Shown here one piece after another: positions 340 to 48,700 of a DNA stretch of 64,000 nt. How positions within the stretch are numbered: position 1 is the first letter of the stretch; every line of letters begins with the position of its first letter. The stretch is from the NCBI GenBank assembly GCA_951406725.2, contig OX597815.1, positions 56,296,001 to 56,360,000 of the forward strand, given 5' to 3'. The position numbers were made by a program, and so were the translations under genes. The stretch comes from Octopus vulgaris (lineage: Eukaryota). The notes under the pieces were generated by a model. That model had not been told where the DNA came from, ran no database searches, and worked only from the letters and a program-made list of their open reading frames with translations.

Positions 340-3030
340 ATTTTTTTTCGAAAAAACACCCCTCCCCACATACCTACTTCCAACACACCTACCTCCAACA
401 CACCACACACACACAACCTACTTACTCACTTGTACGCACACATACTTCTACACCTATACATACCCACGCGCACACACACACGCCCGTTCACACACACACA
501 CACATACGCATACACATCTACGTACATACATACATACATACATACATACACACATACATACATACGCACATACATACACACATACACACACACACACATT
601 GTACATACATACTTTACATACATACATACACACACACACATGCACACATACACGCATGCACATACACATACATACATACATACCTACACACGCACACGTT
701 TACACGAATGCACGCACACATACATATATTTGCATCCTGGCGCACCCCCTTTCTTTTGGGTTTAGGGGTTGATGGATCTTCGGTTCTCGTGGTGTGGGTG
801 TCCGGGGGTCCGCGCGCGCGCGCTTCGACACGGGCCTGGGGTCGGGTCGGCTCCATATGTGTGCGTTGTTTTGTTTGTGTGTTGTGTGTGGGAGCTTGCT
901 TCGTGTGTGTGTGTGTGTGTACATACATACACACACACATGCATGCATGCACGTGCGCGCACCTACATACCTACATACATACACGCACACACACTTACAC
1001 ATATACATACATACACACACACACATACACACATACATACATACACACACACATACATACATACACCCATGCACATACACATATACACACATACTTACAT
1101 ACTCTCATACGGACACACATACACACAGACATACACACACACACACATACATACACACACACATACTTACACACACACTCGCCTGCACGCGCACACACAT
1201 GCATGACATACACCCATACACTCACTCACACACACACATACACACACACCCACATATACACGCACACGCACACATACACACACACGCACCTACACTCCCA
1301 CATACTTACATACGCACCTACATACACACGCACACGCATACATACACACACACACGCATACATACACACACACACACACGCATACATACATACATTACAT
1401 ACGTACACACACACACATACATTCATACCTTCACTCATACAGACATACATACACACACACACACAAACATACACAGACACACACCCATACATACATACAC
1501 ACATACATACACCTATACACTCACGCCTACACACATACACACACACATACATAGACACACACATACACACACATATACGCACATACACATATACTTACAC
1601 ACATGCACACACACACACACACATACACATACATACGCACATGCATACACACACATACACGCATGCACGCATACATACATACATACATACGCACACACGC
1701 ACACGCATGCACACATACATACATACACACACACATACATACATACACACACACACACTTCCACACATACATACACACACACACATACACACACACATAC
1801 ATACATACATACACTCATACACATACACACACACATACTTACATACTCATACGGACACACATACACACAGGCATACACACATACACACTCACACATACAT
1901 ACACACACACACATACTTACATACACACTCGCATGCACGCGCACACACATGCACACACACACACTTCTACACATACATACATATACACACACACACACAT
2001 ACATAGATACATACATACACCCATACACACACATATACACACACACATACTTACATACACTCATACGGACACACATACACACAGACACACAGACATACAC
2101 ACATACACACTCACACATACATACACACACACATACTTACACACACACTCGCATGCACGCGCACACACATGCATGCGCGCGCTCGCGCACGCATACATAC
2201 ATGCATGCACGCACGCCTGTGGGTTCTGGCTATATCTTGGGTTCGTATCTGGGGCCGGCGCGTTCTGGGTTTCTCTTACGCCTGTCACCGCGGGAGTATT
2301 TTTCCATCATTCCTTCAGTTGCGAATTGTTTCCTTGCATGCATATATATACACACACATAAACATATAAACACACATATAATACCCCTACTTTTTGTACA
2401 CACACGCACATACATACATACATTCACTCCCACGCACTCACACACACACATTTACATATATATACACAATACACTTACACACACTTACACACGTACAAAC
2501 ACACACGAATTCACATGCACACCGGCACATACACACACGCAACATATACCTCCACGCGCACGCACACATACACATACGTACACACATATAAGCACTGACA
2601 CACACATACATACGCACACCAAAACATGCGCACACACACGCACGCATACATACATACATGCACACAATTATACATATACGCACACACACACACCCACACA
2701 TACACTCAGTTAAGCACAGTTACTCGCCATACACACAAAAAACGCACACGTACACACACATACTACAACAAAACACACACACGGGACGTACACACGCACG
2801 CACACATTCCCCTTCTTCCTCCTTTTGCTTCTGACCTGTGACTCGCTACGACCACTAGACTTCGCCCAACATACACACACATACACACACACGCACGCAC
2901 TAATAAACACACACACCTGTCATCTCGCAGACCGTTACTACTGCTGCTTGCCACTAGCCGTCGCCCAACATATACATACATACACACACACGCATACACT
3001 CACACGTACACCTTCTTCATCTCACACACT
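340..3030. repeat. Compound (CA)n/(TACA)n microsatellite tract, probably the expanded 3' UTR of the PLE
   Basis: Directly visible; source of all the HT/YI/VC-rich ORFs. Confidence 0.95.
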
Positions 3031-3182: not shown

Positions 3183-3217
3183 GTTTCCGACGAAGAGCTC
3201 CGCTCGAAACGTCATAC
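3183..3217 (+). ncRNA. Minimal hammerhead-like motif (CCGACGA core variant) in the PLE 3' pseudo-LTR
   Basis: gttt-CCGACGA-a-gagc-tcc-gctc-GAAA-cg-TC-atac; downstream of the GIY-YIG ORF and followed by (TA)n from about 3314. Confidence 0.55.
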
Positions 3218-3309: not shown

Positions 3310-3372
<63 letters not shown>

Positions 3373-3795: not shown

Positions 3796-3859
3796 GGTAC
3801 AACTGAAGAAGGGGAATATTCTTTATGTTGTATGTCTCGATTCTCTGTTTTTTAATGAC

Positions 3860-5797
3860 ATAAAGTCACACAAGTTAGAAATCATAGCCATAAGTGAGAC
3901 CAGACTCCATAATCCACAGGCACTAAAGTCCATATTTGGCGGACAGTTTAACATTTATTTTTCTCCCTGTCTGCCGAGAATGGACGGTAGTGGTACCGCG
4001 GTACTTTTTCGCAAGAGTCTGGATATCGAAGTAAAGACAATATTCGTAGACCCGGATGGTAGACTGGTCGTCCTAGATGTCGACGGCAGCAATGGCTGCG
4101 CTTTTCGACTCGTATCAGTCTACGCACCGCCTTTAACAGGTCGGCCGGATTTCTTTCGACGTCTAGAAGTATTCCTAGGAACGTCTCGTCTTTTACTTTT
4201 AGTGGGGGATTGGAATGCTACCTTGGACACGCATGTAGACTACGTGAGTAGAGATTGGAATAGACGGTGATGCAAATGCTTCAGAGACCTGCTCAAACGC
4301 TTTCAACTGTCTGACAGGTACCGACTCGACCACCTGAATGCGCCAAAGTGGACATGGAGCAACCGCATTGGGTCGTCGAGATCGTTTCTAGATAGGATAC
4401 TGTACAGGACAGTAGATAGAGATAGCGTAGGGTGTCCATAATTCCACATAGTCGGCAACACGGATCACAAACTTGTGACGTGTACGCTAGACTTAGGTAA
4501 GACACATAGGCAGGGTCCCGGGTACTGGAAACTAAACGCGTCTTTCCCATCGAGACAGGTTTTCAGGGACCCGATTAGACGAGATAACGAGTAGGGTTGT
4601 CACTCTCTCCCGGCAATGGGCCGAGAGGAAGCTGTCGGGCGGAGGTGGCGAACACATACATCGCGTCCGTAATCTGCTACCGCCTGATCGTCGTGCCTTG
4701 TCCTGACCCTACCATCACCAAACTAGAACGCATTCTCTTCCGCTTCTTTGGGAAAGGATGCGTTCCGATGATCAGGCGATCCATTTGCTGCCAACACCCG
4801 TTAAAAGGAGGGCTGGGCATGCCGTGGTTGATGATGCGCAGACACACGCTAAGACTGTGACATCTCCGGCTCTACGTTGACGACGGTGAACAGGTGTGGT
4901 CGCCGTTTGTGAAGCCGCTTTCCCGCAGCTCGATTCCATGACCGAACTGCAGTCGTGGATCAAAAAGAGGCCGAGGAAGGGCGGATGGCACCGCAAGTGT
5001 CGCGTTGCTCTCAAGCAACTATGCCGTCCCGGGTCGACCAAAGCATTCTATAGGGGATTAGTGGAGGGGAGGTACGATGACGATCTCCTGTCCGAGATGT
5101 GGTCAGAACGACGAAACCATCCTGCACACACTCGTAACAGTGTCCAACAATTTCCGACCTGTGGGTCTATGTCAAACGACTGCTATCACGTGTGGGACGA
5201 GTCGGTTTATCAACCGAGTCTATCGTAAATATTGTCGTGCCTCCTTCCTTGAAACGGGAAGGAAGAGCCATTTTCATCGTTCTTGTGGCTATGGCGAAAG
5301 AAAATTATATTGGACGTGTCTGAAAGGTCTAGAGATGAGAGTTGAGAGGGAAGCTTTGTCTAGTGAAAGTTTCAAATAAAGAAAGGTGAATGTAGCAAGG
5401 ATGACACGTGTGAATGACGGAGCCAGCTTGAGCATAATCCTATGAACCAGAATAAAAAAAAACGAAGGAAAAATAGAGCCACTTACTGTAATGTGTTTTC
5501 TTTTTGCATGAAACTATTGCCCAAGGTTCCCGTGGTCTTTTCTGTAGGCTTTTCTTTCCACGGACAAACCTAATCTGTTTTTCCCTTTTACATTAACATT
5601 TCTGTGATACACGATCCCTATTGATCGGCCCCACTTTTCTTTTCACGTTCCCTTTTGATCGGAATTCGCCCCCCCTTTTTTATTCTTCTTTTCATGATTC
5701 CTTTTGATTGGAATTCACCCCTCCTTTTTTCCCCTTCTCTTCTTCCCAAAAAGAAAAGCTCTACTTCTATGTTTAGCTCTGCGTGGCCAATAAGGAA
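3860..5797 (+). mobile_element. Internally deleted L1/Tx1-clade LINE (APE endonuclease joined to the C-terminal zinc knuckle; RT core missing)
   Basis: IIAISETR, GTAVLF, DPDGRLVVLD, VSVYAPP, VGDWNA, DHKLV, GPGYWKLN, then KGGLGMP and CPRCGQNDETILH; ends at (TCTA)n. Confidence 0.8.
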
Positions 5798-7083: not shown

Positions 7084-7970
7084 CCTTCTATATAATAAAT
7101 ATATATATATATATATATATATACACAATTGCAGCGTGGAAGGTGTTTATAAGCCATTTAAGAAACACAAAAGCCGTTCGATTCACTTCAACATTTAAGT
7201 TTAATTTGTCAAAATATTTTCGTCGCTAAAATCCGCGACCTGTTCACTGACAAAAATCCGTGCTGCATCTGAGAAAGTTAGTTCGTCATATATATGTACG
7301 TATGTATGTGTGTATGTATGCATACATGTGTGTATGTATGTATGTATGCATGTATGTATGTATGTATATATGTATGTGTGTGTATATGCACGCACATACA
7401 CACTATAAACATAAAGCTATAAACCTGTAGCGATGGATAGATGTAGAGTGACCACTCATCACAATAATAGCAAATTTCAACTACCACCCCCCACCGAAGC
7501 CTGGAAGTGATTTATGACCCTTACTCCCAAAACTATACCCTAAAACCTATTATCAGATATTTATCTCTATATCACAGAACTTTTGTTTTACTATTGTGCG
7601 TATGTATGTATGTATGTGCGTATGTATGTATGTATGTATGTATGTATGTATGTATGTATGTATGTATGTATGTATGTATGTATGTATGTATGTATGTATG
7701 TATGTATGTACATACGTACGCATGTGTGTATGTATGTATACGCGCACGTATGCATGTGCCCATGTATGTGTGTGCGTATGTACGTGTGTATGCCCATACG
7801 TAGGTATGTATGTATGTTTGTACTCATGTGCTACGTATGTATGTGAGTGTCTAGGAGAATGGGCAGACGTGTCTGTGAGAGTGTGTACATGTGTATGTGT
7901 ATGTGAACGTGTAGACTAACCCTCTAAACACCCCAGTAAACGATTACCCGTCCTAGATACTGAGCTATGG

Positions 7971-8936
7971 ATGGAAGATGCTATGGTTAATGGAACCATT
8001 AAACCCTGTATACTCCACTCACACTATCAGAAACCGATGGCTAATCCACTAGTAATCCGTAGTGACTCAGCTATGTCGGATACTGCCAAACTCAACATCC
8101 TAGTGACAGACTTAATTAGAGTAATGAGGAATGTATCACCACTATGCCAACCACAAGAACGACAACAACACATCCAGCACTACATATTCCGAATGCAACG
8201 CTCCGGATACACACAAGACAATAGAGTCAGGATGTACAAAAGAGCGAAAGCTAGATTCGAACGCATTCTAAGGAACGACGAAAACGGTATATGCCCCCTA
8301 TACCGCAACAAGTTCTGGAATAGGTTAGAGAGGGACACCAACAAAAGGATGAGAAACGTTACTTGGTACGATAACAGGAGATTTCACGGAGTAATGTTCG
8401 TTGACGCCACACCTAAGAACGAGCTAGGTAAGGCATTCAAGAAAATCCTGCGCACTACGGGCCTAAAAATTAAAGTTGTAGAAAAGACAGGTAGGACAAT
8501 CAAATCGGCATTATGCAGATCATATCCATTTGATAGAATCACCTGTCAAAGTAATTGTGCAGTATGTTCGACAAATCCACATGTAAATTACAGAACCAAG
8601 GGCACTGTATACCAGATTAAGTGCCAGGAGGGAGCTTGCGCGACTAACCCAGAGTCATACATAGGTGAGACTTCTAGAAGCATCAATGATAGGTTCAAAG
8701 AACACCTGGACAACTACATTGAAAGGAAGCCAAACTCCATCTTCTACCAACATGCTGTAGACTGCCACAAAGGATCCTTAGGGAAACTTAAGTTGAACAT
8801 CCTATCAACACATCCCACCGATGCAATGTTGAGACAGGTCACAGAAGCTGTTTGTATACAAGAATACAAACCTACTCTCAACCGAAAGTCCGAATGGAGT
8901 CACATCCAGATCCCATTCAGAAGGACTATTCTATAA
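7971..8936 (+). CDS. PLE polyprotein fragment: RT thumb/linker and GIY-YIG endonuclease
   Basis: Upstream in-frame RLPVLDTELW; HYQKP; GTVYQIKC...YIGETSRSINDRFKEH...H...H; EAVCIQEYKPTLN. Confidence 0.9.
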   Translation: MEDAMVNGTIKPCILHSHYQKPMANPLVIRSDSAMSDTAKLNILVTDLIRVMRNVSPLCQPQERQQHIQHYIFRMQRSGYTQDNRVRMYKRAKARFERILRNDENGICPLYRNKFWNRLERDTNKRMRNVTWYDNRRFHGVMFVDATPKNELGKAFKKILRTTGLKIKVVEKTGRTIKSALCRSYPFDRITCQSNCAVCSTNPHVNYRTKGTVYQIKCQEGACATNPESYIGETSRSINDRFKEHLDNYIERKPNSIFYQHAVDCHKGSLGKLKLNILSTHPTDAMLRQVTEAVCIQEYKPTLNRKSEWSHIQIPFRRTIL

Positions 8937-29799: not shown

Positions 29800-32700
29800 A
29801 TTAAGTTTTTATTTCGAACCTCGCTCTGCCATAGAGAATTCTCCCTTGTGGCATCTCCCCTCTCTCTCTCTCTTTCTCCCCCTTCGATCTACCATCTAAC
29901 TCACCAATCGTACCCCCCCCCCAATCCCTAATCTCTATATAAACCAGCGTTTGCTCTGTTTCTGCCCCTACTCGATTCTCATTGCTTCGGATGATAAACT
30001 CGGATTTCAGAAATGTGCAGCTAAGATATTTTGACTCTAACCTAGTTCATTACTGTTATGCGTTGATCTGTATTATTTATCTCTCTATCTTCTCCCTCCC
30101 TATATTTTTGATCTCTCTCTCTTGTAAACATGATGCCGCTAGCTTCCTATTTGTCTTTAGACGATGCATTTTCTATATTTCCTCCTTTATTTCAGGGTTG
30201 TCCTTTCTTCCCAAATTCCCTAAAAATTTTGGCATTTGCTCCTTTCGCGGTACGCCCGCCCTCCCACCCCCTCCACCAAAACCGGAAGTTAGTACCTCTG
30301 TCTACTTGTGCATACCCCCTCCCACAAACACTCACCCACACCCCTATTGTAGGGCTTATTCGATCATATAGCGCAAAAACTGTAGTGTATGAAGGTTTGT
30401 AGTCTAGTGTTCCTTTATGAAATCTGCCAATCGCAAGTCTTCTTTTCAGGTACATGACACTTCTGTCCCTCATCCCAGGGTCCCACAGGCCCACACCTCC
30501 CACACCCTCAGAGTTGGCACACTCAATGTTGGCACATTGAAAGGTAGGTCTGGTGAGATTGTCGAGCTGCTTGAACGGAGACGTGTGGATTTGTGCTGCA
30601 TCCAAGAAGTAAGGTGGAGAGGAGGCTCCGCTAGGTTCCTCACAGGCAAAGAATACAGGTACAAGATTTTCTGGGCAGGGAACACTGACGGGGTCAGGGG
30701 CCTGGGAATACTTCTTGCAGAGAAATGGGTTGATAAGGTAGTCGAGGTAGTCAGAGTATGTGGCAGAATACTTAAGATTAGATTAGTGCTTTATCATAGG
30801 TCGGCAACCATTATCTCGGCATACGCCCCTCAGCCGGGGCTACCAGAAGGCCAGAATGACCAATTCTATGACACCCTATTACAGACTACCTCGTTGACAA
30901 ATGACAGTGACCTTCTCTTCGTGGCAGGTGACTTCAATGGACATGTTGGACGGCATGTCGGGGGCTTCCATGGCATACACGGGGGCTACAGTTTTGGTTC
31001 TCGCAATGAGGAGGGAACCAGGCTGCTGGAGTTCTGCGATGCAAATGACCTTATGATTTGCAATACCAACTTCAGGAAACCCACCTCTCACCTAGTCACC
31101 TACCATTCTGGCAGACACTAGCCAGATCGACTACATCCTCGCCAGAAAGAGGGAAAGAGGGCTACTTATAAATGCCAAAACATTTCCAGGCGAGGAATGT
31201 ACTCCTCAACATAGATTAGTAGTTAGCGACTTCAGGATCAGGGCCAAATGGCTGCCCAGAAGAAGACCAGCTCGGAGGAGAAGGGTCTGGAAACTTAAAG
31301 ATCCTGCAAATGGACGGAGATTTAGAGAAGTCCTACTCAAAGCTTTCGACGAAATAGAAGGGGATATAGCATCACATAATGTGGAAGCCAATTGGAGGTT
31401 TCTACGGGACAATCTGCTGAGAGCCACTGACCAGATCTGTGGATGGAGCAAAGTCCCATCTCGTCCCAGGGTAATGTGGTGGTGGAACAATGTTGTAGAC
31501 AGGGCTATTAGAGACAAGAGACAGGCTTGGAAGGACTGGTGGAATGGCAGTAGTAGGGAATTGTATCAGAATGCGAAAAGAGAAGCTAGGAGACAGGTAT
31601 ATTTAGCCAGAGGGGAAGCAGATAAGAAAAATATTTGCCAATGTTCTGTGTCGTGAGGACCAAAGACTTGAGGTATTTCGTATAGCAAGACAGTGTGTGA
31701 GAGAGAATCATGACGTGGTAGGAGAAAAATGTGTTCGCATGGATGATGGTTCACTTGCGCTAAATGAGGAAGCAAAGAGAGAGGTTTGGAGATGCCACTA
31801 TGAAAGGTTGCTCAACAAAGAGAATGAATGGGATAAAGAGAGTCTGCCGAATGTCGATCCAACAGAGGGACCAGCTATCCGAGTTGACAGTTCCATGGTA
31901 GTTAAGGCAATTAGAAGCATGAAGACAGGGAAAGCCCCAGGCCCATCAGGAATTACTGCTGAGATGCTCAAAATATCTGGCAGTGTCGGCTATAGCCTAG
32001 TCACCCGTATAGTTAACCAGGTGATACACGAAGGAGTCATACCCAATGACTGGTGTAGTAGCATAATAGTCAACTGCTACAAAGGTAAAGGTGACACCCT
32101 AGATACAAGTAATTACAGAGGTATCAAACTGTTGGATCAGGTAATGAAGGTTACGGAAAGGGTCATAGCCCAACTGATTAGAGAGAGAGTCAACCTGGAC
32201 GAGATGCAGTTTGGTTTCGTGCCAGGGAAAAGCACCACCGATGCCATATTTCTGGTGAGACAGCTGCAGGAGAAATACCTAGCCAAAGATAAAACTCTGT
32301 ATCTGGCTTGCGTTGACTTGGAGAAAGCCTTTGACAGGGTCCCCCGTTCCCTTATCTGGTGGTCAATGAGGAAACTAGGGATAGATGAATGGTTAGTGAG
32401 AGCTGTGCGTGCCATGTACAGGGACGCTGTTAGTAAGGTGAGGGTTGACAACGAGTACAGTGAAGAATTCCGGGTGGAGGTTGGAGTCCACCAAGGCTCA
32501 GTCCTCAGCCCCCTCCTATTTATCATAGTCCTCCAGGCAATAACGGAGGAATTCAAGACAGGATGCCCCTGGGAGCTCCTCTATATTGATGACCTTGCTC
32601 TAATTGCTGAATCACTATCAGAACTGGAAGAGAAGTTTCAGGTGTGGAAGCAAGGATAAGAATTGAACGGCCTTAGAGTCAATCTAGCTAAAACCAAAGT

Positions 32701-34021
32701 CTTAATAAGTAGGAAGGTAGACAAATCTCAAACGCCTTCAGGTAGATGGCCCTGCTTGATCTGTAGAAAAGGCGTAGGTAGGAACTCTATAAGATGCACC
32801 AAGTGTAAGCTATGGACACATAAGAGGTGCAGCAATGTCAAAGGAAGGCTAACTAGGAATATAGTTTTTGTATGTGGCAGATGCTCTGGTGTAATAAACA
32901 CTGAAAATGTGCAGAGACCGTCATTCCAGGGAGAAAAACTAGAAATAGTTGATAGTTTCCGTTACCTAGGTGATCAAGTCAGTAGTGGGGGTGGGTGTGC
33001 CGAAAGTGTAACTGCTAGAGTAAGAAAAGCCTTACCTCTGCTGGTGACAAAAGGCCTCTTGCTCAGAGTAAAAGGCAGACTGTATGACGCATGTGTACGA
33101 ACAGCCATGCTACATGGCAGTGAAACATGGGCCGTGACTGCTGAGGATATGCGTAAGATCACAAGAAACGAAGCCAGTATGCTCCGATGGATGTGTAATG
33201 TCAGTGTTCATACCCGACAGAGTGCCTTGAGAGAAAAGTTGAACCTAAGAAGCATCAGATGTGGTGTGCAAGAGAGACGTTTGCGCTAGTATGGACACGT
33301 GGTAAGAATGGATGAAGATAGTTGTGTGAAAAAGTGCCACACCCTAGCGGTTGAGGGAACCTGTGGAAGAGGTAGACCCAGGAAAGCCTGGGAGGAGGTG
33401 GTGAAACACGACCTTTGCTCTTTAGGTCTCACCAAGGAAATGACCAGAGACCGAGACCTTTGGAAGTATGCTGTGCGTGAGTAGACCCGGCAGGACAAGT
33501 GAGGCCATAACCCGTGGCCCCTACCTGGGACGTAGTCAGTCCACCTGTGCATACCTTCCTTCTTGGGACTTATAACTCTACTTGTGAAGACCTGTTGAGG
33601 CAAGTGAAAATCAAAATCGAAATCGATCCACATCAATGGAATTTGTAGTTTGTGGTACCAGTGCTGGTGGCACATAAGAGAACCTTCCGAACGTGGCCGT
33701 AGCCAGCACCGCATCGACTGGCCTCCATGCTGGTGGCACATAACAAACACCATCCGATCGTGGCTGTGCCCGCCTCGCCTAACCTCCGTGCCGGTGGCAC
33801 ATAAAAAACACCATCCGAGCATGGCCGTTCGCCAGCCTCATCTGGCACCTGTGTCGGTGGCACATAAAAAGCACCCACTACACTCACAGAGTGGTTGGCA
33901 TCCAGGTGTAGAAACACCGCCAGATCTGACTGGCCTGGTGCAGCTTTCGGGTTTCCCAGATTCCAGTTGAACCGTCCAACCCATGCTAGCATGGAAAGCG
34001 GACGTTAAACGATGATGATGA
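29800..34021 (+). mobile_element. Near full-length RTE-clade LINE (APE + RT + PHD finger), inactivated by stops and frameshifts; coding region 30417-33484
   Basis: LRVGTLNV, CIQEVRW, AYAPQ, GDFNGHVG, KAPGPSGI, QFGFVPG, DLEKAFDRV, GVHQGSVLSPLLF, YIDD, FRYLG, RGRPRK; (GAT)n tail; 5' boundary approximate. Confidence 0.95.
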
Positions 34022-34043
34022 TATATATATATATATATATATA

Positions 34044-35308
34044 TCAGGCTGAGTAAGCAATGTTTTGAAACATGAAATTCATCACAATATATTTCAACAA
34101 TGCAAAAATTTTATTCATCAAAGTACCATTACAATCATCACATTTTTGCCAAGTTACAAGTTTGTTTATTCTGATAACATAACAATCTGGAGTTCTGGAG
34201 CTGATAAACTCTTTGAATGCACTTTCAGCATCGGTTTGATTTTTTAATTCCTTCTCTCTCAGGAACCCATCAAGGTGCTTGAAAAAGTGGTAGTCAGTAG
34301 GAGAAAGTTCTGGGGGATAAGCTGGATGGGGAAGAACTTTGTAGCCAAGTTCACTCAACTTCTGGAGCATCATTAGTGACATGCATGGTTGAGCATCCAT
34401 AAGAATGATTGGCCCTCTTCTATTGACCAGTCTGGGATGGAAGAGTAGCAGTTTTTTGTTCATTTTGGCAATTTCATGGCAATATGTTTCTGCAGTAATG
34501 GTTTTTCCAGGTTTTAAGAAGTTATAGTGGATGAGTCCAGCAGTACACCACCAAACAATCACAATAACCATTTTTCTGAAGAGCTCAGGTTTAGGGAAGG
34601 TTTTCGGTGCTTCATTTTGGTCCAAGCATTGCGAAGAACATTTTTTATTATTGTACAGAATCTACTTTTCATTGCAAATTACAATACGGTTGAGAAATGG
34701 ATTGGTCTAGTTACATAGAAGTGACAAGTAAATTTCATATCTGTGCATTTTCTGATTTTCGTTCAAATTATATGGTACACATTTGTTGTGCTTTTTTGAT
34801 TTTCCAATCACATACAAATGATTGCAAGCAGTTTTCTGGCCAACTTGAAGTTCTTTTGCCAGTTCTCGAGTTGTTTTACATGGTACTTTCTCAATGACGG
34901 TCTTTGATTGACTGTCATTGATGACAGATGGGCGTCCACTACACTCACAAACTTCAAGGCTCAGGTCTCCACTGTGAAATCGTTTAAACCATTTTCGAAC
35001 TGACCACTTACTGGTCGTTTCCTCACCAAACATTTCATTGATATCGCAAGCAGTTTCAGCTGCTTTACATCCACTTTTGAAGTTGAATAGCAAAACTGCT
35101 TAAATATCGCACTTTGACAGTTCCATTTCAGATGATTGTAACAACAGTGGAAACTGTATCAATGTTAATTTATTGATGCATTTGGGCAAGTCTATGTCTA
35201 TATTATCAGACAATTGCAAAAAAATGTTTAAGAAAAATTTAAAACTCTACAAAAATCCATACAAATTCTTCATGGTTCAAAACGTTGCTTACTTTTTACT
35301 CAACTTGA
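34044..35308 (-). mobile_element. Mariner transposon, degraded, with terminal inverted repeats and TA flanks
   Basis: HTH VRKWFKRF..GD...SGRP; HPAYPPELSPTDYHFF; ends TCAGGCTGAGTAA / TTACTCAACTTGA. Confidence 0.9.
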
Positions 35309-45796: not shown

Positions 45797-48700
45797 ATCA
45801 TCATAATCATCATCATTTAGCGTCCGCTTTCCATGCTAGCATGGGTTGGACGGTTCAACTGGGGTCTGGGAAGCCAGAAGGCTGCACCAGGCCCAGTCTG
45901 ATCTGACAATGTTTCTACAGCTGGATGCCCTTCCTAACGCCAACCACTCCATGAGTGTAGTGGGTGCTTTTTATGTGCCACCGGCACAGGTGCCACACGG
46001 GGCTGGCAAACGGCCATGGACGGATGGTGCTTTTTACATGCCACCGGCATGGGGGCCAGGCGAGGCTGGCAACAGCCACGATCGGATGGTGCTTTTTACG
46101 TGCCACCGGCACGGAGGCCAGTCAGGGCGGCGCTGGCAATGGCCACGATCGGATGGTTCGCTTACGTGCCACGGGCACTGGTATCACAGCTGCAATTTCC
46201 ATTGATGTTGATCAACTTTGTTTTGGTTCTGATTTCTGATTTTTTGATTTCCACTTGCCTCAACGGGTCTTCACAAGTGGAGTTTTGTGTCCCAAGAAGG
46301 AAAGGTTAAGCTTAAGTCGATTGGCTACATCCCAGGTAGAGGCTACGGGTTATGGTCTCACTAGTCCTGCTGGGTCTTCTCACGCACAGCATACTTCCAT
46401 AGGTCTCGGTCTCTAGTCATTTCCTTGGTGAGACCTAAAGTTCGAAGGTCGTGCTTCACCACCTCGTCCCAGATTTTCCTGGGTCTACCTCTTCCACAGG
46501 TTCCCTCAACTGCTAGGGTGTGGCACTTTTTCACACAACACTCTTCAGCTATTCTCATCACATGACCATACCAGCGCAAATGTCTCTCTTGCACACCACA
46601 ACTGATGCTTCTTAGGTCCAACTTTTCTCTCAAGGTACTTACACTCTGTCGAGTATGAACACTGACATTACACATCCATCGGAGGATACTGGCTTCATTT
46701 CTTGCGAGCTTACGCATATCCTCAACAGTCATGGCCCATGTTTCGCTACCATGTAGCATGGCTGTTTGTACACATACATCGTACAGTCTGCCTTTTACTC
46801 TGAGCGAGAGGCCTTTTGTCACCAGGCTATTCTTACTCTAGCAGTTACACTTTCAGCACACCCACCCCCGCTACTGACTTGGTCACCTAGGTAACGGAAG
46901 CTATCAACTACTTCTAGTTTTTCTCCCTGGAATGTGGCGGAAGACGGTCTCTGCACATTTTCAGTGTTTATTGCTCCTTTGACATTGCTGCACCTCTTAT
47001 GTGTCCATAGCTTACACTTGGTGCATCTTATAGAGTTTCTACCTACACCTTTTCTACAGATTGAGCAGGGCCATCTACCTGAAGGCATTCATGATTGGTC
47101 TACCTTCCTTCTTATTAGAACTTTGGTTTTGGCTAGGTTGATCTAAGGCCCTTCAATTCTAATCCTTGCTTCCACACCTGAAACTTCTCCTCCAGTTCTG
47201 ATAGTGACTCAGCAATTAGAGCAAGGTCATCAGCATAGAGGAGCTCCCAGGGGGCATCCTGTCTTGAATTCCTCTGTTATTGCTGGAGGACTATGATAAA
47301 TAGGAGGGGACTGAGGACTGAACCTTGGTGGACCCCAACCTCTACCCGGAATTCTTCACTGTAATCATTGCCAACACTCACCTTACTAGCAGCATCTCTG
47401 TACATGGCTCGCACAGCTCTCACTAACCATTCATGTATCCCTAGTTTCCTCATTGACCACCAGATAAGGGATCGGGGGACCCTGTCGAAGGCTTTCTCCA
47501 TGTCAACAAAAGCCAGGTACAGGGGCTTATCTTTGGCTAGGTATTTCTCCTGCAGCTGTCTTACCAGGAATATAGCATCAGTAGTACTTTTCCCTGGCAC
47601 GAACCCAAACTGCATTTCATCTAAGCTAGCTCTCTCTCTAATTAGTTGGGCTATAACCCTCTCTGTAACCTTCATTATCTGATCCAGTAGCTTGATACCC
47701 CTGTAGTCATTTGTATCTAGGGCGTCAACTTTACCTTTGCAGCAGTTGACTATTATGCTACTACACCAGTCGTTGGGAATGACTCCTTCGTGTATCACCT
47801 GGTTAACTATACGGGTGACTAGGCTATAGCCGACACTGCCAGATATTTTGAGCATCTCTGCAGTAATTCCTGATGGGCCTGGAGCTTTCCCTGTCTTCAT
47901 GCTTCTAATTGCCTTAACTACTAAGGAACTGTCAACTCGGATTGCTGGTCCCTCTGTTGGGTCAACATTCGGCAGACTCTCTTTATCCCATTCATTTTCT
48001 TTATTCAGCAAACTTTCATAGTGGCGTCTCCAAACCACTCTCTTTGCATCCTCATTTAGCGCAAGTGAACCATCATCCTTGCGAACACATTTCTCTCCTA
48101 CCACATCACAATTCTCTCTCACACACTGTCTTGTAACATGAAATACCTCAAGTCTTTGGTCCTCACGGCGCAGAACATTGGCAAATTTTTTCTTATCTGC
48201 TTCCCCTCTGGCTAAATACACCTGCCTCCTAGCTTCCCTTCTGGCAGTCTGATACACTTCCCTGCTACCACCGTTCTTCCAGTCCTTCCAAGCCTGTTTC
48301 TTTTGTCTAATAGCCCTGTCAACAATATTGTTCCACCACCACGTTATTTTGGGTCTTGAGGGGACTTTGCACCAACCACAGATCTGGTCAGTGGCTCTCA
48401 GCAGGTTGTCCTTTAGAGACCTCCAGTTGTCTTATACCCCATGTGAAGCTATACCTGCTTCTATTTCGTTAAAGGCTTCAAGTAATATGTCTCTAAATCT
48501 CTGTCCATTCGCAAGATCTTTAAGCTTCCAGACCCTTCTTCTCCATGTTGGTCGTCTTCTAGTTGTCCTCTTAGTTCTGATTCTAAAGTCACTAACTACC
48601 AGTCTATGTTGTGGGGTACATTCTTCGCCTGGGAAGGTTTTGGCATTTATAAGCAGCCATCTTTCCCTTTTTCTGGCAAGGATGTAGTCGATTTGGCTAG

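Follow-up and report, generated by a model that had tools for sequence, protein, structure and literature searches.

The 64,000-nt stretch of Octopus vulgaris DNA that we analyzed (the window) opens inside a Penelope-like element (PLE) on the plus strand. Positions 2 to 337 encode the 3' end of its open reading frame (ORF), a GIY-YIG endonuclease (Pfam E 2e-4, just below the curated cut-off) with its stop codon at 335–337. A C/A-rich 3' untranslated region (UTR), recognized by composition and laid out in the same way in full-length copies, runs from 338 to 720 and leads into a fold-back. Arm 1 (721–920), which pairs with arm 2, is an inverted copy of it with A>G changes. Arm 2 (2157–2352) is the original segment, also with A>G changes, and is homologous to the A-rich segment of a related, unedited family described below. 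Between them lies a C/A-rich spacer with 4% G (921–2156), the predicted loop. A putative minimal hammerhead-like motif follows at 3183–3217, where a pattern search finds a CCGA core instead of CUGA, as in most family loci with a tail. All these features are on the plus strand. Homology to the element ends at 3314, where a (TA)n tract (3314–3371, no strand assigned), the likely insertion target, abuts its 3' end. The window copy is 5'-truncated, starting 267 nt before the window, while paralogues continue into the reverse transcriptase (RT). Two further Penelope-like fragments lie nearby, one with GIY-YIG at 7920–8936 (+) of the window and one with RT at 3829–4569 (-) of locus L011. Elsewhere in the window there are broken frames at 30408–33289 (+), 46361–48431 (-), 34044–34661 (-), and 3797–4270 (+), which resemble RTE-type LINEs, a mariner-type transposase, and an endonuclease fragment.

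The full copy at locus L089 has a single frame of 883 aa, with RVT_1 at residues 366–552 (E 1e-3) and GIY-YIG at 788–824 (E 0.01), both matches being below the Pfam cut-offs. In this translation we identified by eye a CX4CxxC linker before the endonuclease and a CCHH motif within it. A CX2-5CxxC linker and a CCHH motif in these positions define the Neptune/Nematis clade in the available text of PMC8557442. The traits of the element fit a C-terminal EN+ PLE of the Neptune/Nematis type as described in the accessible parts of PMC8557442 and PMC4209133, with which it shares the order of RT then GIY-YIG, the CX4CxxC linker, tandem copies, a microsatellite target, and a putative minimal hammerhead-like motif in the tail. 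It differs from these PLEs, as they are presented there, in two respects. Its inverted segment lies within the 3' UTR and is inherited, where theirs are inverted 5'-truncated copies beside the insertion, and the core of its hammerhead-like motif is CCGA. CCGA is found in the unedited family as well as in all subfamilies seen, and the canonical CUGA in a few copies. No hammerhead appeared among 70 Rfam matches at E up to 5, which were microsatellite-driven miRNA/snoRNA matches only, none at gathering score. Three copies are arranged in tandem on C10 with a 6.17-kb period, and head-to-tail full-length young copies with a period of ~6.2 kb were seen at G000:C10:97.81–97.82 Mb and G000:C16:15.98–15.99 Mb. 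At locus L057, an unrelated insertion of ~690 nt, resembling a LINE 3' end by eye, occupies the upstream UTR ~270–960 nt downstream of the endonuclease.

Arm 1 holds the patch that an initial annotation had singled out as ~170 nt poor in A within an A-rich tract. This description is accurate, as positions 750–920 contain 8 A, 29 C, 70 G, and 64 T (171 nt), and no other 170-nt stretch of the 64-kb window has 17 A or fewer. The patch is also, as had been stated, on the sense strand of the enclosing PLE, in its 3' UTR. It had been proposed that reading G as A restores ordinary local sequence. This fails, because T is doubled (37% versus 15–18%) and C halved (17% versus 36–39%) relative to the flanks (38–42% A, 5–9% G), so that a G-to-A reversal cannot recover the flanking composition; high T and low C are due to the inversion. 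Half of the remaining A do follow a G (4/8), but this matches the expectation from the G share of the patch (p 0.43).

We found that the G-rich form is common in the genome. A DNA search of the octopus's own genome located 29 other places with 72–93% identity, two of which hold the patch in part only, and G is the majority letter among these 29 paralogues at 68 of the 70 columns where the window has G. Among 29 loci chosen by their endonuclease, 25 have the patch. Patterns accepting either G or A, with all other letters exact, returned G at 132/133 and 110/110 sites; the unedited family was missed by these patterns because its copy of the segment lies on the other arm. With one mismatch allowed, there were 375 matches, versus 4 for a reversed control, and the 100 of these 375 that were listed had G at 793/800 sites. 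In total, the G-rich form is present at about 370 places. It was also found in contigs of four sequencing runs from four studies under three organism labels (the kind of run being guessed or unknown, and one run being perhaps the source of the assembly), including a contig identical to window 792–891. Since contigs of four public studies carry the G form, polishing of the assembly with edited RNA reads, one of two explanations initially offered, is very unlikely. These findings show that the patch is neither unique to the window copy nor an assembly artefact.

When reverse-complemented, the patch aligns to another A-poor island of the element, with which it forms an inverted repeat of ~190 bp in the 3' UTR. 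Over 190 columns, the window arms (721–920 and 2157–2352) form 111 Watson–Crick, 44 G·U, and 4 A·C pairs and 31 other combinations. Under a scoring that treats G·U and A·C alike, the pairing score is 95.5, whereas none of 500 shuffles exceeded 52.5. In the predicted fold of 701–2400, the 5' part of arm 1 pairs with arm 2 and its GT-rich 3' part with the spacer, and the exact structure of the window copy is uncertain. A local hairpin inside the patch alone was rejected, because the z of -3.8 for the window copy falls to a mean of -0.85 over 26 copies. The spacer contains repeated G-bearing C/A motifs (window ~935–960, 1176–1206, and 1926–1955) that resemble arm 2 in its edited 5' part and look like internal duplications after editing or a local edited hairpin beside arm 1.

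Subfamilies of the fold-back lineage form a ladder, O-O2-W1-W2-M-Y, with O basal and Y youngest. Pairing of the consensus arms (Watson–Crick/G·U/A·C/other) is 119/48/4/12 in O, 114/50/7/17 in O2, 123/44/3/20 in W1, 116/44/4/27 in W2, 102–111/30–31/4–8/19–21 in M, and 112–116/19–21/5–6/30–31 in Y, and the best duplex of all subfamilies is that of the basal O. Copies of Y are 0.2% from their ORF consensus, and the lineage reaches young, intact copies.

Since a G·U pair can arise from either A>G or C>T, an outgroup was needed to establish direction. A motif barring G at seven arm-2 G·U sites matched two places, both of which proved to be copies of this element, sharing its ORF end, UTR, and tail. 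A DNA search with these two unedited copies gave 40 scored matches of 116 candidates, from which 30 loci were fetched. The A-rich segment is present in 30/30 loci of this unedited family, and arm 1 is absent in 18/18 relatives that reach the ORF end; 16 of the 18 have no G+T-rich island, and two have T-rich expansions only, with no inverted copy. In a tree of tails, the unedited copies and a short-tail family fall outside the O-O2-W1-W2-M-Y ladder. When inverted, the unedited segment has 44–53 A in the columns that contain 8 A in the patch. No fold-back copy with an unedited arm 1 was found. Judged by copy-to-consensus distance, the unedited family is not clearly older (7.7% versus 3.5%, and 2.7% versus 3.1% for its short tail copies). 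Tail-only copies of this family (L184–L213, ~1500–1790 in element orientation) are ~290 nt long, flanked by (TA)n, and start near one point; they number 2437 candidates and may represent a non-autonomous derivative. No longer copies of the short-tail family turned up in a pattern search for them. Two unedited copies, L214 and L215 (G000:C2:193.50 and 193.53 Mb), are 98.7% alike including their flanks and lie 32 kb apart, a local segmental duplication.

We determined the spectrum of change on the sense strand by comparing the unedited consensus (30 loci) with subfamily O. In arm 2, A>G affected 15/43 sites, with 2/30 for G>A, 5/55 for T>C, and 0/32 for C>T. In arm 1, it affected 28/48, with 2/41 for T>C, 1/31 for G>A, 1/25 for C>T, and 6/48 for A>T. 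When both arms were pooled, A>G reached 43/91 (47%), versus 7/96 for T>C (p 3e-10), 3/61 for G>A, and 1/57 for C>T, and it was 38/83 without the 30-nt search motif. The bias was also seen against single unedited copies, since each of 24/30 gave 32–37 A>G of ~67 A, with a median of 4 for T>C and 1 for C>T; the other six were left out because of anchor or length failure. Beyond the arms, A>G affected 0/92 sites immediately after arm 2, 2/93 at the end of the ORF, and 6/72 in the tail, next to 8/47 for G>A in the tail. A>G is thus confined to the duplex region, on the sense strand of both arms. Furthermore, in each arm the T facing an A lost from the other arm is retained, and the relative has the same A/T state. 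Together, these two observations set the direction as A to G whatever the relative ages of the families. Conversion of 40–50% of A is given as the end point for long perfect duplexes under ADAR in the available text of PMC11019741, and the 47% seen here falls within this benchmark.

The comparison with the unedited family also accounts for the three motifs that had been put forward as A read as G. Of the 70 G in the patch, 27–35 correspond to A when the patch is aligned with the inverted unedited relative (3 relatives tested). The G of the CG repeat (812–820) align to A in 3/3 copies, as had been predicted, and the G run (804–808) is derived from A in part only. The GT repeat consists mostly of true G stemming from the inversion, not of edited A.

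Avoidance of an A with a 5' G, the strongest mark of ADAR, is seen as a trend that does not reach significance. Such an A was converted in 2/7 cases, versus 41/74 for other A (p 0.17), and in 3/6 in W1. In six single relatives, 1–2 of the 6–7 A with a 5' G were converted. Tests with inferred contexts had given no 5'-G depletion (4/9, 10/14, and 11/16) and were replaced by those with true contexts. By 5' neighbor, conversion ranks A>U>C>G and not U>A>C>G. For the 3' neighbor, conversion was 5/6 before G, 17/22 before C, 8/16 before A, and 13/37 before U (p 0.007), an order that fits human ADAR1 as reported in the accessible portion of PMC11019741; invertebrate hyper-editing is described in the available text of PMC5625713 as favoring a downstream A. 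As for ongoing editing, none of 71 young copies, chosen by endonuclease similarity, has an A>G cluster. In these copies A>G is the rarest transition, and C>T is commoner (1.0 versus 0.4 per 1000 sites). In contigs from three runs, which we guess to be RNA, A>G did not go beyond DNA variation, a weak comparison as it covered contigs only.

The arms kept changing after the founding of the lineage. From O to Y2, in an alignment that is noisy between O and Y, A>G in the arms was 13/53 and G>A 2/122, with 6/122 for A>G in the ORF end. Later changes turned G·U into G-C at 14/48 pairs and A-U into A·C at 3/49 (p 0.003), and 5–6 A-U pairs became G-C through changes on both sides. Within O itself, two further A>G occurred at A-U pairs, each common to 10/30 copies. 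Along the ladder, the number of other mismatches grew from 12 to 30. Compared across the subfamilies, these later changes suggest further editing, selection for pairing, or both.

Our preferred explanation, to which we give a probability of about 85%, is that the patch represents an arm of an inverted duplication and that the A-to-G changes of both arms were likely made by ADAR on a folded transcript, then fixed by reverse transcription into the founder of all later subfamilies. The inverted duplication and the spectrum of change are established by alignment of the copies; that the enzyme was ADAR, that the RNA was folded, and that there was a single burst is what we infer from them. The starting point is the relative family, in which the segment occurs once, A-rich and with no inverted copy. 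A reversed copy of some 200 nt of it then arose in the upstream UTR, with template switching at short self-complementary TA motifs as the probable cause; TA palindromes are found at both junctions of the duplication. The transcript is predicted to fold into a duplex of ~190 bp with a loop of about 1–1.2 kb, in which ADAR would have deaminated about half of the A on both strands, as the spectrum suggests. The RT of the element would then have read inosine as G, and the product would have entered the germ line and remained active. In the subfamily consensuses, later masters gained further A>G and turned many G·U into G-C by T>C, while mismatches grew too. The idea of a hyper-edited RNA fixed in genomic DNA, as formulated in the initial annotation, is therefore supported by the sense-strand A-to-G bias against the unedited relative, but the event did not happen in this copy. 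A G-rich sequence common to paralogues and an origin as an inverted C/A-rich piece had both been regarded as arguments against editing. We found both, since all 29 paralogues of the first search share the G-rich form wherever they hold the patch, and the patch is arm 2 copied in inverse orientation. Neither refutes editing, because the inversion supplied the duplex on which editing acted, and the resulting molecule became the ancestor. A lack of A-to-G bias among the mismatches, which had also been named as an argument against it, is not what the pooled counts show.

Other explanations were weighed against this one. That a single hyper-edited transcript was inserted at the window locus, or that RNA reads were used in polishing, has the composition of the patch in its favor and nothing else. 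We give it almost no credence, since it is at odds with the G majority in the 29 paralogues, with the G returned by the G-or-A patterns and their one-mismatch matches, and with the G form in contigs of four studies. Equally negligible is the notion that the patch is merely an inverted C/A-rich piece with no editing involved, for although the inversion is real and accounts for the high T and low C, the inverted unedited segment is rich in A where the patch is nearly devoid of it. A functional duplex kept by selection, in which ordinary mutation was at work with G·U tolerated and A·C purged, is a more substantial alternative that we nevertheless find quite improbable. It draws support from the later pair changes, in which G·U gave G-C far more often than A-U gave A·C and a few A-U pairs became G-C on both sides. 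However, under it C>T should have been as frequent as A>G, and tolerance of G·U does not explain the pattern because C>T gives G·U equally and is commoner in young copies, yet is almost absent from the arms. In addition, the share of G among purines is 12/29 where the C/A part of arm 2 is paired, versus 7.5% in the spacer, which is unpaired (p 7e-7). Outside the arms, the lineage has diverged too little from the unedited family to account for 47% per A, and the growth of other mismatches along the ladder also runs against selection. For the origin of the G·U pairs, this alternative is largely refuted, although selection may have shaped their later fate.

Another strand-specific process in the fold-back is also unlikely, whether the RT misincorporated nucleotides as it unwound the duplex or an intermediate (a DNA:RNA or cDNA hairpin) was deaminated. 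It is favored by a neighbor pattern that is not a clean ADAR motif. Against RT error, A>G is the rarest transition in the 71 young copies, all of which passed through the same RT, and we know of no RT error mode giving ~50% A>G on both arms. In favor of deamination of an intermediate, ADARs can edit DNA in DNA:RNA hybrids in vitro according to the available text of PMC12925331.

If ADAR on a folded transcript was indeed at the origin of the lineage, the consequences would reach beyond this element. RNA editing is normally erased each generation. Here, one genome offers a before-and-after pair, consisting of an A-bearing parent family and a descendant lineage seemingly founded by a hyper-edited RNA. 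This would be a route for ADAR to rewrite inherited DNA and steer transposon evolution, and the lineage would preserve, like a fossil record, the activity of ADAR in the germ line and its site preference. It would also imply that the RT of the element copies through a long edited duplex. As a caution for similar studies, a G common to paralogues does not rule out editing. Far more tentatively, and with considerable doubt, we suggest that ADAR might act as a heritable, structure-targeted mutagen. The burst might have made a perfect and probably harmful fold-back tolerated, and later edits and T>C might have ratcheted A-U to G·U to G-C, with the edited lineage, not the parent, still active.

We compared these findings with known systems. 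A literature search, in which subscription journals were outside the scope, gave no retrotransposon lineage founded by ADAR-edited RNA among the matches listed. The closest parallel is in avian retroviruses, where ADAR-type A>G hyper-editing is described for the U3 of Rous-associated virus and an inverted repeat of avian leukosis virus in the accessible part of PMC12925331. There too, nearly 50% of A in an inverted repeat of a retroelement RNA read as G, which is attributed to ADAR. The octopus case differs in that the element is a non-viral PLE, the change is in the inherited genome, where it founded hundreds of copies, and an unedited relative resides in the same genome. LTR retrotransposons edited by APOBEC likewise have deaminase scars in genomic copies, seen as strand-biased mismatches against relatives, and these scars are sense-strand G>A, vertebrate-specific, and reported to be absent from 19 invertebrates, as given in the available text of PMC4866542. 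Here, the change is A>G, limited to the duplex, and common to a whole lineage. At the RNA level, Penelope repeats and fold-backs are ADAR substrates as well; hyper-editing of repeats, including a lizard Penelope, was found in a survey where octopus had the highest hyper-editing signal (accessible portion of PMC5625713). The edits described there are in RNA only, whereas those reported here are in DNA. What the octopus case adds is the unedited parent family, the traceable ladder of descendants, and the later compensation.
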